DNA from: Acidimicrobiales bacterium
Lineage (GTDB): Bacteria > Actinomycetota > Acidimicrobiia > Acidimicrobiales > Aldehydirespiratoraceae
Direction: 5' to 3'
Length of the DNA stretch: 48,227 bases
Assembly: GCA_047516945.1 (NCBI GenBank)
Contig: JAKZTU010000001.1
Span: forward strand, 1-48,227
In this document: in pieces, positions 5,731 to 13,411 of the stretch
How the letters are laid out: every line of letters starts with the position of its first letter
Numbering within the stretch: position 1 is the stretch's first letter
The notes under the pieces: generated by a model
Told to the model about the DNA's origin: nothing
What the model saw: the letters and a program-made list of their open reading frames with translations, nothing else
The model's database searches: none
Translations under genes and position numbers: made by a program

Positions 5731-6849
5731 TTATTGCGTTGCTGCTTGGTAGGCGTCGAGTACGAGGCTGTGGAAATGGTGCAGTGCATGCTCGGACAAC
5801 CCCGAGCCCAACGGATCGTTCACGATGCGCCCTTGGGTGAAGGCCGGTGTCTGCATCCCGCGCTGCACGCTTTCGACCAAGTTGATGTCTTCGACCTGGA
5901 GGACCTGGTCGAGGTAGCGGATCGATTCAAGCTCTGCTTCATTCGGCTCATCCGACTCAAGGAATAAATCGCAGGTCTGGAACGTGACGTTCTCCGATAC
6001 CGGGATGATCTTGAGAATGCTCATATTCCCTCGCCCGGGGTAACGCATGATGCAGGTGTTGGGCCAGACCCACCAAACGGCGTGGTCGGTGACCGTCGCC
6101 TCCGACACGTCGTACGCGTTGTTCTCGGTCCTGCCGGCCTGGGCCATGTGGCTTGAGTAGATGCCGTGCGTCGTGACCTTGTAGGTGTCCATGTCGACCA
6201 GCGAGATGAAGTCCTTGTGGGCGACGTGGCAGTGGTAGCACTCGAGGAAGTTGTCGACGACGTTCTTCCAGTTGGAGTTGATCGTGTATTCCAGACGGTG
6301 GGCGAAGGTGAGCTGTTCGACATCGGGGGCCCAGTGCGCAATCTCTTCTGCGAGTTGGCCCGAAGCCTGCGCCAGCGGCGCCGCGGCCGGGTCGAGGTTG
6401 ACGTAGACGAACCCTCCGAGTTCCTCGACCTGCACCTGGTCGAGGCAGATCGAACCGACCTCGAAATCGACGAGGTTCTTCGTGTGCCGGGCGGACTGGA
6501 GAGTTCCGCCGAGATCATAGGACCACCCGTGATAAGGGCACACGATATTGCTCGTCGTGCCCTCGCCAGCGAGAACATGATGGGCCCGATGCTTGCACAC
6601 GTTGAAGAAGGCGCGGAGTTCGCCGCTGGCATCGCGCACGGCGACGATGGGCATCCCGGCGACCTCATCGGCTACGTAGTTGCCGGGATTCCGCAATTTC
6701 TCGCCGTGGCAGAGCCACTGCCACGACCGGCTGATGATCTGCTGCTGGTCGGTCTCGAACCACTCGGGCAGCGTGTAGGCGTCGGCCTGCAGCGACATCG
6801 ATAAAGACGGATCGGGGTCCCAACCCCCGGCAATCGTTTTCGATCTCAT
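5731..6849 (-). CDS. Rieske non-heme iron oxygenase alpha subunit (choline monooxygenase/CntA-like group)
   Basis: Rieske motifs CKHRAH...CPYHGW, mononuclear iron motif NFLECYHCHVAH, and QVED near the C-terminus. Confidence 0.9.
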   Translation of the reverse strand: MRSKTIAGGWDPDPSLSMSLQADAYTLPEWFETDQQQIISRSWQWLCHGEKLRNPGNYVADEVAGMPIVAVRDASGELRAFFNVCKHRAHHVLAGEGTTSNIVCPYHGWSYDLGGTLQSARHTKNLVDFEVGSICLDQVQVEELGGFVYVNLDPAAAPLAQASGQLAEEIAHWAPDVEQLTFAHRLEYTINSNWKNVVDNFLECYHCHVAHKDFISLVDMDTYKVTTHGIYSSHMAQAGRTENNAYDVSEATVTDHAVWWVWPNTCIMRYPGRGNMSILKIIPVSENVTFQTCDLFLESDEPNEAELESIRYLDQVLQVEDINLVESVQRGMQTPAFTQGRIVNDPLGSGLSEHALHHFHSLVLDAYQAATQ

Positions 6850-8169: not shown

Positions 8170-8709
8170 TCAGGTACTGAGTAGCGCGGCGAGGCGGTCG
8201 AACCGGTGGTCTTCGTCACCTGTGATCCGTCCGACCCAGCGCAGCGCCTCTGCGGTGTCGATGTGGGTTCCGAGCGCGATCATGGCTTCGATATCGATCC
8301 AGTCCTTGGGTCGATCGAACACCGCCTTGCAGACGCTGAGGTGGGTGGCGGAGAGCACGCGAATCGTGTGATCGGCGAAAGGCACAGTGACGGTTGCGGC
8401 TTCCGCGGCGGCGTGAAAGGGGTCGTAGGAGAAGAAGAGGTCGATTGGTGTGTTGTCCCACATGTTCCGCGCCTGGCCGTCGCGGGCCAGCGTCTCGGCT
8501 ACGGTGTCGGTGTCGACTCCGAGTTGGCTAAGTGGCTCGAATACCTCTGCGGCTCGCTCTACGGATACGAAAACGTTCACATCGATGGCGATCGTGGCTC
8601 TCGGCTCGGCGTGATAGGCGAGCGAGATCGCGCCACCGAAAGCGTGTGGTATTGCTGTCAGGGCACGATCAATTGCGAGGATCTTGTCGGGCAGCGACAA
8701 GCGGGTCAC
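8170..8709 (-). CDS. Nucleotidyltransferase-fold protein (putative TA toxin)
   Basis: AFGGAISLAYHAEPRATIAIDVNV and K..FDRPKDWIDIE. The GTG start overlaps the upstream HTH gene stop (GTGA). Confidence 0.7.
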   Translation of the reverse strand: MTRLSLPDKILAIDRALTAIPHAFGGAISLAYHAEPRATIAIDVNVFVSVERAAEVFEPLSQLGVDTDTVAETLARDGQARNMWDNTPIDLFFSYDPFHAAAEAATVTVPFADHTIRVLSATHLSVCKAVFDRPKDWIDIEAMIALGTHIDTAEALRWVGRITGDEDHRFDRLAALLST

Positions 8710-9032
8710 GACGAGTCGATTCGGGGATAGGCGAGTGAGGCGCGTCTGTGATGTCCGATGGCGTCGGCAAGGAGGAGCACATCCACGAGTCGGCTGGCGT
8801 GCTCTTCGGGGCATGACGGTGGGGGGATGTCTGGCGGCTGGGATGCGAGTTGGAGTTCTAAACGGTCGCCCGCTGCTGTGATGAGCCGTCGCAGTGTGCG
8901 AGTCGTAGGGTCTCGCCGCCCATGCTCGTAGGCGGAGATCACCGGTTGGCTGGTGCCGGCGCGTGCAGCCAGCACCGCCTGACTCAGACCGTGACGCTGC
9001 CGCGCCGCCCGAAGGAGTTCTGCCGGTTCCAT
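8706..9032 (-). CDS. XRE-family HTH protein (putative antitoxin/regulator)
   Basis: LLRAARQRHGLSQAVLAARAGTSQPVISAYEHGRRDP. Confidence 0.85.
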   Translation of the reverse strand: MEPAELLRAARQRHGLSQAVLAARAGTSQPVISAYEHGRRDPTTRTLRRLITAAGDRLELQLASQPPDIPPPSCPEEHASRLVDVLLLADAIGHHRRASLAYPRIDSS

Positions 9033-9068: not shown

Positions 9069-9197
9069 CTTCACAGTAGCTAGTTCAGCTTGCGTTGCTG
9101 AGGCGCAGATCTCGGACTAAGTTATGCGTGTTCAACTGGCAAATGATGCCACCGGTGGCTGGTTACGAGTCACGGTTGACCTAGGAGGACTGACATC

Positions 9198-10355
9198 ATG
9201 ACTGGTGGAGATGCCACAATGCGGGCGTACGGGGGGCAGCAGCCGGTCCCGACGTTCGACGACCCAGCGTTCAGGAAACTCAACAAGCCTCTTGCCGAAG
9301 CCCGTGTTGCGATCGTGACCTCGGCAGCGCTGCACCGGCCCGATCAGGATCGCTTCGCTGTGGCCGACACAGGCTTTCGGGCGCTTGACCGTGCTGACCG
9401 CAACATCGTCATGGGCCACTGGAGTCCCAACTTCGACCACACAGGCTTTCAACTCGACCTCAATGTCGTGTATCCGATCGACCGGTTGGAGGAATTGGCC
9501 GCTCAGGGTGTCATCGGTGATGTCGCGCCACGGCATTTCGCCTTTGCCGGCAATCAACCTGAGACAGTCAGCGAACTGCGTCTCGACACCGGCCCCGCAT
9601 GTGCGAAGGAGATGTTGGCCGATGCGGTCGATGTGGTGGTGCTAACGCCGGTTTGACCGGAGTGCACGCGTACCGTGAGTGCGCTCGCCCATGTCTTCGA
9701 AGCCGCTGGTTTGTCGACCATTGTGCTCGCTTCGATGAAGGAGGTAGCCGAGCGGATGATGCCCCCGCGCACGCTCTACTGCGAGTTCCCGCTGGGCCGT
9801 CCGCTGGGTCGTCCCGACGACGTTGAGTTGCAGCTTGATGTCTTGAACCGCGCCTTGGCATTGCTCGACTCGAACGAACCTGTACTCGAGACCCATCCGC
9901 TGGTGATCGAATCCGAGGAAACACCTTTGGCGTGCTCGATCCCGCCGCGCTTCGATGCAACGCTTCCGCCCGCGGTTGATGAAGCCCAGGGTCTGCGAGC
10001 GGCCTATGACCGGTCATTCGACGCTCGGGGTGTCACCTCGGTCGGCCGCGCCATTGACGCCGACACAGTTGTCGATGCACTCGACGTCCTGGCCCAGTGG
10101 GCCGAAGGTTCGTCGTGGAAGGAAACTCCGCTACCGGGCAAGAACACGATCGCGGTCTGTCACGACATACGGGCCTACTACACCGAAGCAGCCCTTGAGC
10201 TAGCGACAGGGCCGGCGCCAGGAGGGCGTGCGGTCGAAGCCTGGTTCTACACCGAGACCGAAGCCGGCAAGACCATGATGGCGGCGCGCACACAACTGAA
10301 GGAGCAGGACGCACCGTTCCCGTTCTGGTTCTACATGGCCCCCGCCCACCGCTAG
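9198..10355 (+). CDS. Selenoprotein of the glycine/sarcosine/betaine/proline reductase selenoprotein B (GrdB/PrdB-like) family; Sec UGA at 9654-9656
   Basis: The track ORFs 9198-9656 and 9675-10355 are in the same frame, separated only by TGA. Read-through gives VVVLTPV-U-PECTRTVSALAH (UxxC). PLAEARVAIVTSAALH and DLNVVYPIDRLEEL are typical of the family. RBS AGGAGG upstream. Confidence 0.85.
9657..9690 (+). promoter_or_regulatory. Candidate bacterial SECIS hairpin
   Basis: GAGTGCAC (9660-9667) can pair with GTGCGCTC (9679-9686), including one G-U pair, immediately 3' of the UGA. Confidence 0.55.
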
Positions 10356-10365
10356 CCTGGTTGGG

Positions 10366-11589
10366 TTGACTGAGCCGACAATTACAGTTCGTCCGGGGCA
10401 TCCAGACTTCTTGGATCTCGCCTGGGAGCAGTCCGTCGTCGATTGGGACAGTCCTCGGCTGGTGACGCTGCCGAAGGGGATCTCGCGTCACGAGGTCAGG
10501 TTCGTCACCTACGACGAAGGCCTGTATGCGATCAAGGAACTGCCCCACAAAGCGGCGCGCAACGACTACCAGGTGCTTCGCGCACTTGAGCGGCTGGAGG
10601 GACCGTCGGTCAGTGCGGTGGGCTTGGTTGAGGACCGCTGGGATGACCCTGGAGCGGAACGTTCGGCTGCTCTGATAACGAGATATGTCGACTTCTCGTT
10701 TTCATACCGGGAGTTGCTCGAAGGAACTGGTTTCGGTGAACGGCGCCGACAGATGCTGGCTGCTTTCGCCGGGCTGCTCGTCGAATTGCATCTGGCTGGT
10801 TGTTTCTGGGGTGACTGTTCGCTGTCGAACGTTCTCTTCAAGTACGACGCAATGGCTATCGAGGCTCTGATGGTTGATGCCGAAACCGCTGAACTGCACC
10901 CCGAACTCAGCGACGGTCAACGCCTCCACGACATCGACATCATGACAATCAACGTGGCAGGTGGTATGGCCGACATAGCGGCTTCACGAGGGGTTGGTAT
11001 TGATGACGCTGATACCGACCTTGGTGAAGAAATAGCTCGTTGGTACGAATGGTTGTGGGACGAGACAACCAGTGAGACCGTGATCGGCACAGACGAGCGC
11101 TATCGCATCACCGAACGGATTCGGCACCTCAACGAACTCGGGTTTACGGTCGACGAAGTCGACCTCACCTCCACCGATGGAGGCACCCGGCTGCGGATGC
11201 GGCCCAGCGTCGGCCCCCGGAACCACAACACGCGTCGCTTGCGGGAAATAACTGGAATTGAGGCGTCGGAGTGGCAGGCTCGGCACCTGCTCAGCGACAT
11301 CTATCACTTATCAGCAGGCCGCAGCAGCGAGAAAAGCGGTGATCTGGTGTTGGCTGCGATCCGCTGGCGAGCCGAACGGTGGGAGCCGGCAATCCGTCGA
11401 ATCCAAGTTCAGGCGGGGGATGACAATGTGCTGCAGGGATACTGCGACTTCCTGAATTATCGCTATGAGGCATCGAGTAGCGCTGGCGCCGATCTGGGCC
11501 AAGAAGCCGCCTTCGACGGATGGCTCGCAGCCGGTCGCCCCGGTTTCCGCCCCGAACCCGAAGCGTCACCGACAAGGACCGACATTTAA
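10366..11589 (+). CDS. DUF4032 domain / LPS-kinase-like protein
   Basis: HPDFLDLAWE, LPKGISRHEVRFV, and LLVELHLAGCFWGDCSLSNVLF..LMVDAETAE. Confidence 0.85.
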   Translation: MTEPTITVRPGHPDFLDLAWEQSVVDWDSPRLVTLPKGISRHEVRFVTYDEGLYAIKELPHKAARNDYQVLRALERLEGPSVSAVGLVEDRWDDPGAERSAALITRYVDFSFSYRELLEGTGFGERRRQMLAAFAGLLVELHLAGCFWGDCSLSNVLFKYDAMAIEALMVDAETAELHPELSDGQRLHDIDIMTINVAGGMADIAASRGVGIDDADTDLGEEIARWYEWLWDETTSETVIGTDERYRITERIRHLNELGFTVDEVDLTSTDGGTRLRMRPSVGPRNHNTRRLREITGIEASEWQARHLLSDIYHLSAGRSSEKSGDLVLAAIRWRAERWEPAIRRIQVQAGDDNVLQGYCDFLNYRYEASSSAGADLGQEAAFDGWLAAGRPGFRPEPEASPTRTDI

Positions 11590-11590
11590 C

Positions 11591-11620
11591 GTACAAATTG
11601 CTGTTCAGTAGTTGTACACT
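11591..11620 (+). promoter_or_regulatory. Probable autoregulatory operator and -10 element of the vapBC operon
   Basis: Inverted repeat GTACAA (11591-96)...TTGTAC (11612-17) overlaps TACACT, which lies 7 nt before the ATG at 11628. Confidence 0.5.
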
Positions 11621-11627
11621 TACCGTT

Positions 11628-11891
11628 ATGGATGTAGCGGTCACTGATTTGCGAGCCCATTTGAGGCACTGGTTGGATCAGGCGAGAGACGGTGAAGAGG
11701 TTGTGGTCACCGAGAGAGGAATCCCGGTGGCAAAGATCATCGGCTTGGAAACCACCGCGATAATCGAGTCACTGGTCCAGCAGGGAAAAATCTCCAAGCC
11801 TTCTTCTCAAAACCGGCCCGTGGCTACCGGTCGCGCGCGGCCGCGGTCCCGCCAGTCGGTCTCAGACCTAGTTTCCGAGCAGCGGGACTGA
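11628..11891 (+). CDS. vapB: Phd/YefM-family antitoxin
   Basis: MDVAVTDLRAHLRHWLDQARDGEEVVVTERGIPVAKI. Confidence 0.9.
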   Translation: MDVAVTDLRAHLRHWLDQARDGEEVVVTERGIPVAKIIGLETTAIIESLVQQGKISKPSSQNRPVATGRARPRSRQSVSDLVSEQRD

Positions 11892-11895
11892 TCGC

Positions 11896-12333
11896 TTGGC
11901 CATCGTCTATTTCGACTCCAGCGCGCTTGTCAAGCTGCTGGTTGAGGAGTCTGGGAGCGATATTGTTGCCGCTCTCTGGGACGGGTGCGATGCTGCGGTC
12001 TCGAGCCGTCTCTCCTATCCAGAGGTGTGCGCAGCATTGGCCGCGGCTGGACGCAACCACGACTTGGACCAGGCCAGTCTTACTCGCTGCGAACAAGACT
12101 GGGAGCACTATTGGGCGGCGATTCGCCCCGTTGAACTCACTCACCCTGTGCAAATGGCGGCTGGTCGGCTGGCCAAGCAACACGGCCTTCGCGGAGCCGA
12201 CGCGATCCACCTCGCCAGCGCTTTGGGACTAGGTACTGCGGATGTGGTGGTGGCTGTGTGGGACCTGAGGCGCCATGCCGGAGTAGTATCGGAGGCTCTG
12301 GCCGTGTCTCCGCCCAGTTTGGAAACGACATGA
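11896..12333 (+). CDS. vapC: PIN-domain toxin
   Basis: IVYFDSSALVKLLVEE, YPEV, LRGADAIHLASA and VWDLR. Confidence 0.9.
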   Translation: MAIVYFDSSALVKLLVEESGSDIVAALWDGCDAAVSSRLSYPEVCAALAAAGRNHDLDQASLTRCEQDWEHYWAAIRPVELTHPVQMAAGRLAKQHGLRGADAIHLASALGLGTADVVVAVWDLRRHAGVVSEALAVSPPSLETT

Positions 12334-13298: not shown

Positions 13299-13411
13299 TC
13301 AGGCCAAGCACCTGCGATGCGTCGCAATGCCAGATACGGTGCCCACGTTCTTGCGCCGCCAACATGAGAGCGAACTAAGTGTCCGTCTCGGGCCGCTCGG
13401 TCACCGCGGAC

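Follow-up and report, generated by a model that had tools for sequence, protein, structure and literature searches.

The window analysed here is a stretch of 48,227 nt from an Acidimicrobiales bacterium (GenBank assembly GCA_047516945.1, contig JAKZTU010000001.1, positions 1 to 48,227 of the forward strand), and at 9198..10355 on its plus strand lies a complete gene for a putative selenoprotein, 385 codons followed by TAG. Two open reading frames (ORFs), 9198–9656 and 9675–10355, share a frame there with a lone TGA (9654–9656) between them. Translation with TGA as selenocysteine (Sec, U) bore out what a sequence-only reading of the window had proposed, that the two join into one protein, here of 385 aa, with the motif LTPV-U-PECTRT. 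A Shine–Dalgarno-like AGGAGGA (9183..9189, +; direct sequence reading) is followed 8 nt further on by the ATG, and 9198 is a plausible start because homologues align from residues 1–5 onwards; relatives match the full length, 1–385, with a single internal TGA. Three codons on the plus strand are central to what follows: the UGA read as Sec (U153, 9654..9656), at which homologues have TGA or TGC/Cys; that of Cys156, the second residue of the UxxC motif (9663..9665); and that of Cys246, in an inter-domain linker with the conserved motif L-A-C-S-x-P-P (9933..9935).

The TGA is retained throughout the relatives of this gene. Matches were found in 34 of 61 related genomes, with a TGA included in 59 of 61 match rows; the two TGA-less rows span residues 243–383 and 329–385 only and so miss codon 153. 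When the codon was located in the DNA, it was TGA in 32/32 orthologue loci (motif TPV/I-U-P-x-C-TRT), in 8/8 paralogue loci and in 80/80 public-genome loci collected with alignment A1 as the query (78 by motif, plus L137 and L073); these counts are not additive because the locus sets share genomes. From 98% down to about 30% identity, every relative spanning codon 153 keeps TGA at this one codon, which is well outside what chance would give. Full-length database homologues (380–420 aa) have Cys at position 153 in 7 of 10 cases in alignment A1 and 18 of 21 in alignment A3, the others being Ser (P0062) and Gly (P0108 and P0136), and six stop-free homologue genomes have TGC at the aligned codon. 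Cys156 is present in 66 of the 68 database proteins that cover it and is invariant in A1 and A3, and the Gly153 and Ser153 homologues retain both Cys156 and Cys246. Trp is shown at position 153 in two database homologues. The Sec/Cys pairing that the sequence-only reading had put forward as a check is therefore present, in that the codon is kept as either TGA or Cys.

That reading had also pointed to the selenocysteine machinery as a check, and all four components are encoded, above their cut-offs, in the genome (3.5 Mb in 430 contigs, 94% complete). The tRNA-Sec scored 65.5 bits and was called by ARAGORN as tRNA-SeC with anticodon TCA; selB (274.7 bits) and selA (406.4 bits) are adjacent on the same contig; and selD (360.8 bits) has an in-frame TGA of its own, in the motif GAG-U-GCK, marking it as a Sec-containing selD. 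An 8-bp hairpin with the 5-nt loop GGUCG lies 3′ of the selD UGA (L018:1218-1275, on contig C63 of this genome), and the same loop occurs in some paralogues of the gene at 9198–10355.

A candidate Sec insertion sequence (SECIS) hairpin lies at 9664..9688 (+), with an upper stem at 9668-9673/9679-9684, a loop, CGUGA, at 9674-9678 and lower pairs at 9664-9665/9687-9688. Its conservation was assessed in alignment A2, of 29 distinct 48-nt stretches around the UGA, with covariation judged against 500 shuffles. In A2, 96.1% of cells were paired and both sides had changed in 4 of 8 pairs (for example, C-G 16 and U-A 12, or A-U 23 and G-C 6); this combination of pairing and covariation was matched by 0 of 500 shuffles, and controls slid along the alignment paired in 7–67% of cells. 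On 58 further distinct public-genome sequences, 464 of 464 cells were paired. Bacterial SECIS (bSECIS) elements have an apical loop 16–37 nt after the UGA on an upper stem of at least 4 bp, and the loop comprises 3–14 nt with a G among the first two bases. The hairpin at 9664–9688 agrees with these rules, its 5-nt loop beginning 17 nt past the UGA on a 6-bp upper stem, and alone it folds at −8.5 kcal/mol.

The SECIS-like structure named in the sequence-only reading was a different one, an 8-bp stem (9660-9667/9679-9686, within 9660..9686, +) in which the same 3′ arm pairs with a different 5′ arm. That stem does exist in the sequence and is the centroid fold of 9654–9695 (z −0.69, with 45 of 200 shuffles folding equally well), but the conserved hairpin has the other register (9668-9673/9679-9684). 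The two are mutually exclusive because the 3′ arm is shared. As a conserved element the 8-bp stem was rejected: it is genus-specific, it pairs in only 68.5% of cells when relatives are compared, and its covariation stays at shuffle level. The comparison of sequences thus favours the 6-bp hairpin, rather than the 8-bp stem, as the conserved element. Rfam, which covers bacterial SECIS elements poorly, gave no family at gathering score across the whole window and only chance-level snoRNA matches around the UGA.

The N-terminal part of the protein (aa 1–236, 9198..9905, +) is a PrdB/GrdB-like alpha/beta domain, as judged from NCBIfam, Pfam, an alignment with the PrdB protein P0218 and an AlphaFold2 (AF2) model. 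The best NCBIfam match was to PrdB of clostridial D-proline reductase (TIGR04483, E 1.1e-37, aa 17–225 on model positions 12–220 of 238); at 129.7 bits it did not reach the cut-off of 300, whereas P0218, which passes that cut-off, scores 453.2. P0218 aligns at 33% identity over 207 aa, and its C-G-T-C falls on U153-P-E-C156, which upholds the earlier placing of this UxxC at the GrdB/PrdB Sec position. Further motifs common to PrdB and this protein are NFD, D-x-N-x-x-x-P-I-D-R-L and P-x-G-x-x-x-G-x-P.

Matches to the GrdB side of the superfamily (GrdB/GrdF/GrdH; PF07355, TIGR01917/TIGR01918) were partial. Pfam GRDB (PF07355) was passed, with 30.4 bits against a gathering score of 22, for aa 11–150 on model positions 202–345 of 347; the match stops at 345, three residues before the Sec codon, so that Pfam misses the second half of the fold. 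TIGR01918 scored 48.7 bits against a cut-off of 65.45, its match starting at model position ~203, and all GrdB-type NCBIfam models stayed below their cut-offs. The protein thus corresponds to the C-terminal half of the GrdB models (positions ~200–426) and, unlike GrdB, is without the N-terminal ~200 residues, the first half of the ~430-aa GrdB architecture. The GrdB motif is UxxCxxC; in this protein C156 is followed by T-R-T instead. One Cys-form relative carries the NCBI name ‘glycine/sarcosine/betaine reductase selenoprotein B family protein’.

The AF2 model of the whole protein, made with 22 sequences (predicted local distance difference test (pLDDT) 94.3, predicted template modelling score (pTM) 0.92), lays out the alpha/beta domain to residue 236, a linker at 237–257 and helices at 258–378. 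The UxxC follows strand 146–150 at the start of helix 156–169, and six polar residues away from it are invariant in A3 (S76, D80, E168, R191, Q212 and E262). Comparison of the alpha/beta domain with VIA-align returned generic Rossmann/periplasmic-binding-like matches only (residues 30–237, Z up to 8.7); Foldseek gave no match to the whole model at E ≤ 0.001, and a search of solved structures by sequence gave one chance-level match only (E 0.12). In a quick tree, the 22 long forms and one 293-aa row grouped together with a Shimodaira–Hasegawa-like approximate likelihood ratio test (SH-aLRT) support of 95, a value of little weight, being partly circular, as the alignment took in the C-terminal columns of 21 long rows. 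Residues 255–314 of one PrdB-like homologue, P0254, gave a sub-threshold Pfam match to UGSC (19.8 bits, cut-off 25), which hints, at the level of sequence, at a distant relationship with UGSC, an abundant marine UxxC selenoprotein family.

Beyond the PrdB match, which ends at residue 225, the protein continues for some 150 residues that PrdB does not have, close to the ~140 aa first estimated. They include the Cys246 linker and a C-terminal helical domain, defined from the AF2 model (aa 258–385, 9969..10352, +); modelled alone, residues 245–385 reached a pLDDT of 95.2. This domain had no Pfam or NCBIfam match, and its best comparisons with solved structures were a Z of 4.2 and a Foldseek E-value of 1.6; a missing fold match for a predicted structure does not prove a new fold. 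Cys246 is found in 194 of the 205 database proteins covering it, within the motif [LM]-[AST]-C-x-x-P-P, and Pro249 in 194 of 202. Among the A3 homologues, 17 of 21 have Cys at position 246, the others having Ser (2), Thr (1) or Leu (1). A protein atlas search with the C-terminal part of the Cys homologue P0093 gave only unnamed clusters (scores 0.86–0.89), commonest in Chloroflexota and Actinomycetota, which serve as leads only. In the 1019-aa database protein P0251, residues 668–828 have 41% identity to residues 213–373 here and no Pfam family; judged by sequence, the C-terminal domain may be fused to another part here, or the protein may be a gene-calling artefact.

The sequence-only reading had described the enzyme as an orphan, with no partner adjacent, and searches of the genome agree with it. 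PF09338, which covers the PrdA and GrdE partner proteins, had no match in this 94% complete genome, and nor did PF04723 (GrdA), although the latter search matched no control genome and so is without a positive control. For PF09338 the control was positive: among 301 genomes of the phylum, 10 carry it at a score above its cut-off (one of these the unpublished G207). Of these 301 genomes, 41 have relatives of the selenoprotein (E ≤ 1e-20), and none of the 41 is among the 10 that bear PF09338. The domain was also absent from five further genomes with short relatives, whose PrdB-like genes score below the PrdB cut-off; the search thus took in this genome, the 301 of the phylum and the five further ones, and not single-contig relatives such as G001, G005 and G009. 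No gene for PrdA/GrdE, GrdA or thioredoxin was found among the scanned neighbours.

The long form was found only in the same order, plus G168 (with TGA) and G199 (with TGC). Close relatives within the Acidimicrobiales come from Candidatus Aldehydirespiratoraceae, Ilumatobacteraceae and Microthrix, and one Cys form is from Solirubrobacterales. The host genome encodes a haem-copper oxidase subunit I (525.5 bits), and the window holds a gene for a Rieske ring-hydroxylating oxygenase alpha subunit (5731-6849, minus strand) upstream of the selenoprotein gene, in line with the earlier remark that the organism also encodes oxygenases. A Stickland-type role is unlikely because of these two genes.

Together, these results make it highly likely that 9198–10355 is one 385-aa selenoprotein gene, encoding an orphan long-form member of the PrdB/GrdB superfamily and not a D-proline reductase. 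The partner-less long form, with its conserved C-terminal domain and nearly invariant third cysteine, is a distinct variant. The reading of a stand-alone Sec enzyme is supported by the Sec machinery, by the TGA/Cys conservation, by the PrdB alignment, by the missing partners and by the aerobic character of the host.

Several points weigh against this interpretation. Sec153 and the 385-aa product are predicted here from sequence comparison. The hairpin is short, its energy is no better than that of shuffles in GC-rich sequence, and related sequences may beat shuffles without any structure. The invariant G-U of its loop is not independent evidence, because these two bases also open the conserved Val160 codon. 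A control on Cys forms was not clean and was not used, because short Cys homologues also fold there; L146, the one long Cys form, keeps only 4 of 8 pairs in the hairpin register. Within the genus the 8-bp stem is the more stable of the two competing structures, so that either may form there in vivo. The chemistry is assigned by analogy, and the locus neighbourhoods gave no conserved operon partner, substrate or electron donor. Finally, with the genome 94% complete and in 430 contigs, a partner gene may have been missed.

The genes around the selenoprotein gene offer few leads. Its neighbours in the window encode a PrmA-like methyltransferase, a protein without a family match, a Kdo-like kinase/DUF4032 protein, a Phd/PIN pair and a quinone oxidoreductase; the prd operon genes prdC, prdD, prdE and prdF and the grd genes are not found nearby. 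A divergent 214-aa ORF (8170-8814, minus strand), with no Pfam or NCBIfam match, adjoins the gene on one side. On the other, 10 nt past the stop, the Kdo-like kinase and DUF4032 gene (10366..11589, +; PF13224, PF06293) is probably co-transcribed with it. The same gene comes next in 8 of 13 loci from the genus (with one locus too short to test), in none of the more distant loci L034–L057 and in 5 of 102 loci overall, and these last two counts rule it out as a conserved partner. In one same-genus locus the downstream DUF4032 gene matches in four short pieces (L026:2669-3145), as if degraded. A Phd/YefM antitoxin and PIN-domain toxin pair (11520-12333, +) sits between the DUF4032 and quinone oxidoreductase genes; it is also present in some same-genus loci (L022, L024 and L060) and was not detected in others.

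Among 29 loci nothing was common beyond close relatives that could be a conserved operon partner, and the commonest neighbour cluster among 79 loci, of acyl-CoA synthetase type, was present in 23. The sole recurring uncharacterised neighbour is DUF2855 (PF11017; 13412-14503, minus strand, in the window), which was found in the flanks of 12 of 102 loci; in L070, L072, L133 and L135 it is the immediate divergent neighbour of the PrdB-like gene. Neither NCBIfam nor the solved structures gave a match to it. Among the 61 relatives, 23 genomes bear DUF2855 and 20 of these also have a match to the selenoprotein, although in a majority of family-level genomes the two genes are on different contigs, and relatives do not count as independent cases. 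The recurrence of DUF2855 may point to a functional partnership or may reflect synteny among relatives; the link is weak, is confounded by relatedness and serves as a lead only. In three close relatives (G011, G012 and G015; loci L058–L060), a second, ~40%-identical PrdB-like TGA gene is found near quinone-oxidoreductase and DUF2855 genes, and in L060 this paralogue sits between the two. In the window, the quinone-oxidoreductase and DUF2855 genes are ~110 nt apart (13299-13411), with no paralogue between them.

The wider family has been seen before. A survey of the Sargasso Sea ranked PrdB, with 42 Sec genes and the motif UXXC, as the third most abundant selenoprotein family (PMC1088965), and Table 2 of the Global Ocean Sampling (GOS) survey lists PrdB under pfam07355 with UxxC and 235 Sec plus 110 Cys sequences (PMC2398784). 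The gene described here has in common with that ‘PrdB’ family, as far as the available parts of the two papers describe it, the UxxC, pfam07355, Sec and Cys forms and an origin in aquatic bacteria, and very probably belongs to it, the comparison being with the survey descriptions rather than with their sequences. In those parts, the family is treated as proline reductase and nothing is said of a missing PrdA, an extra domain or lineage. It is likewise listed as proline reductase in the accessible sections of PMC13188914, PMC9312934, PMC1794560 and PMC5029168, and neither these nor the portion seen of a 2026 preprint on Sec use in Actinomarina mention a missing PrdA or an added domain. Literature searches, with subscription journals and supplements outside their reach, turned up only Synergistota reports for PrdB-like/GrdB-like proteins, and for selenocysteine in Acidimicrobiia gave no mention of PrdB. 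What is already known, then, is that marine PrdB-type UxxC selenoproteins exist; the long-form architecture and the orphan status are new. The gene had been called a hidden selenoprotein, and it is indeed missed by gene callers, but the family itself is already in the literature (PMC1088965 and PMC2398784, in the parts available). Public database entries are mostly the 226-aa piece 3′ of the TGA, called a hypothetical protein and without a Pfam domain (P0002–P0121). Because databases mostly split the gene in this way, the domain and the family are under-counted.

What the protein does can be approached by analogy with PrdB, whose mechanism we take from the accessible part of a review (PMC13188914) and from general background. 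SelB with Sec-tRNA would read the hairpin and insert Sec at codon 153. On chances that we put at roughly even, the U153 selenolate would then attack as the nucleophile and C156 would resolve the intermediate to a selenenyl-sulfide, which a cellular dithiol would re-reduce as in PrdB. With the balance about the same, the protein would bind its substrate without a partner, probably through the invariant polar residues, Cys246 and the C-terminal domain; such binding would have to be intrinsic because no pyruvoyl-bearing PrdA/GrdE was found in the genome. A more specific version is a good deal less probable and is offered as a speculation: the long form would be a self-contained Sec-dependent reductase in which the Cys246 linker and the helical domain replace PrdA/GrdE, with Cys246 acting either as a third redox cysteine or, through self-cleavage between Ala245 and Cys246, as the source of an N-terminal pyruvoyl group.

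The main functional alternative, possible though we consider it the less likely course, is that the gene encodes a real selenoprotein that works as a thioredoxin-style selenol/thiol-disulfide oxidoreductase or redox sensor through U153/C156 and perhaps C246; it contests only the proposed chemistry and not the gene identification. In the model, the UxxC is predicted at a helix N-terminus after a beta-strand, and aa 145–176 give a faint Thioredoxin_3 match (E 0.23, 11.9 bits against a cut-off of 24.8). Table 3 of PMC1088965, in the part available, puts PrdB among thiol-dependent redox selenoproteins, and the lack of a partner or conserved operon, together with the retention of C156 and C246 where residue 153 is Gly or Ser, would also suit such an activity. 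However, many invariant polar residues (the six given above) lie far from the UxxC, a dedicated and conserved extra domain suits a specific small-molecule site better, and the fold is PrdB-like rather than thioredoxin-like.

It is very improbable that the protein is instead the B subunit of a conventional D-proline/glycine-type reductase whose PrdA/GrdE partner is encoded in sequence missing from the assembly. PrdB is the best family match and the assembly is incomplete, but the score is far under the cut-off that a true PrdB passes with ease, prd and grd genes are missing from the vicinity and the host can respire oxygen. Moreover, PF09338 went unmatched in this genome, in the five others and in all 41 genomes with relatives, in a search that did match 10 other genomes of the phylum.

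Slighter still is the chance that the TGA is a true stop, leaving a nonsense pseudogene or two genes with products of 152 aa and 226 aa. Gene callers do mostly predict the 226-aa downstream piece separately, and a GTG is available for it at 9675. Decay, however, does not fit a stop fixed at one codon over so wide a range of identity with both flanks conserved as protein; the P-E-C-T-R-T between TGA and GTG holds the invariant Cys156; Cys-form homologues are single proteins of 380–420 aa; and both halves fall within one confidently predicted fold. TGA conservation, Cys forms and Sec machinery together in practice exclude both a pseudogene and a pair of separate genes. Least probable of all is a decoding of the UGA other than as Sec, by genome-wide Trp/Gly reassignment or near-cognate read-through: the W in two database homologues is most simply caused by gene calling under a TGA=Trp table, whereas Cys, not Trp or Gly, is the main alternative in homologues, the genome has a full Sec system whose selD uses UGA at a known Sec/Cys site, and the other ORFs of the window end normally under table 11.

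The orphan long-form selenoprotein that we favour bears on a widespread family. PrdB-type selenoproteins are among the most abundant in ocean metagenomes, according to the available parts of PMC1088965 and PMC2398784, and are still filed there as a proline reductase of anaerobic Stickland fermentation. Unlike PrdB systems, this genome has no PrdA match, no prdC–F neighbours and genes for aerobic respiration. The proline-reductase name is almost certainly wrong for this Actinomycetota branch of the family, because PrdA/GrdE was found in none of the 41 genomes, the long form has an extra domain and the host encodes a haem-copper oxidase. If the proposal of a self-contained reductase were true, oxygen-respiring marine and soil Actinomycetota, and probably Chloroflexota, would gain an unrecognised reductive cleavage of an amine- or osmolyte-type compound.

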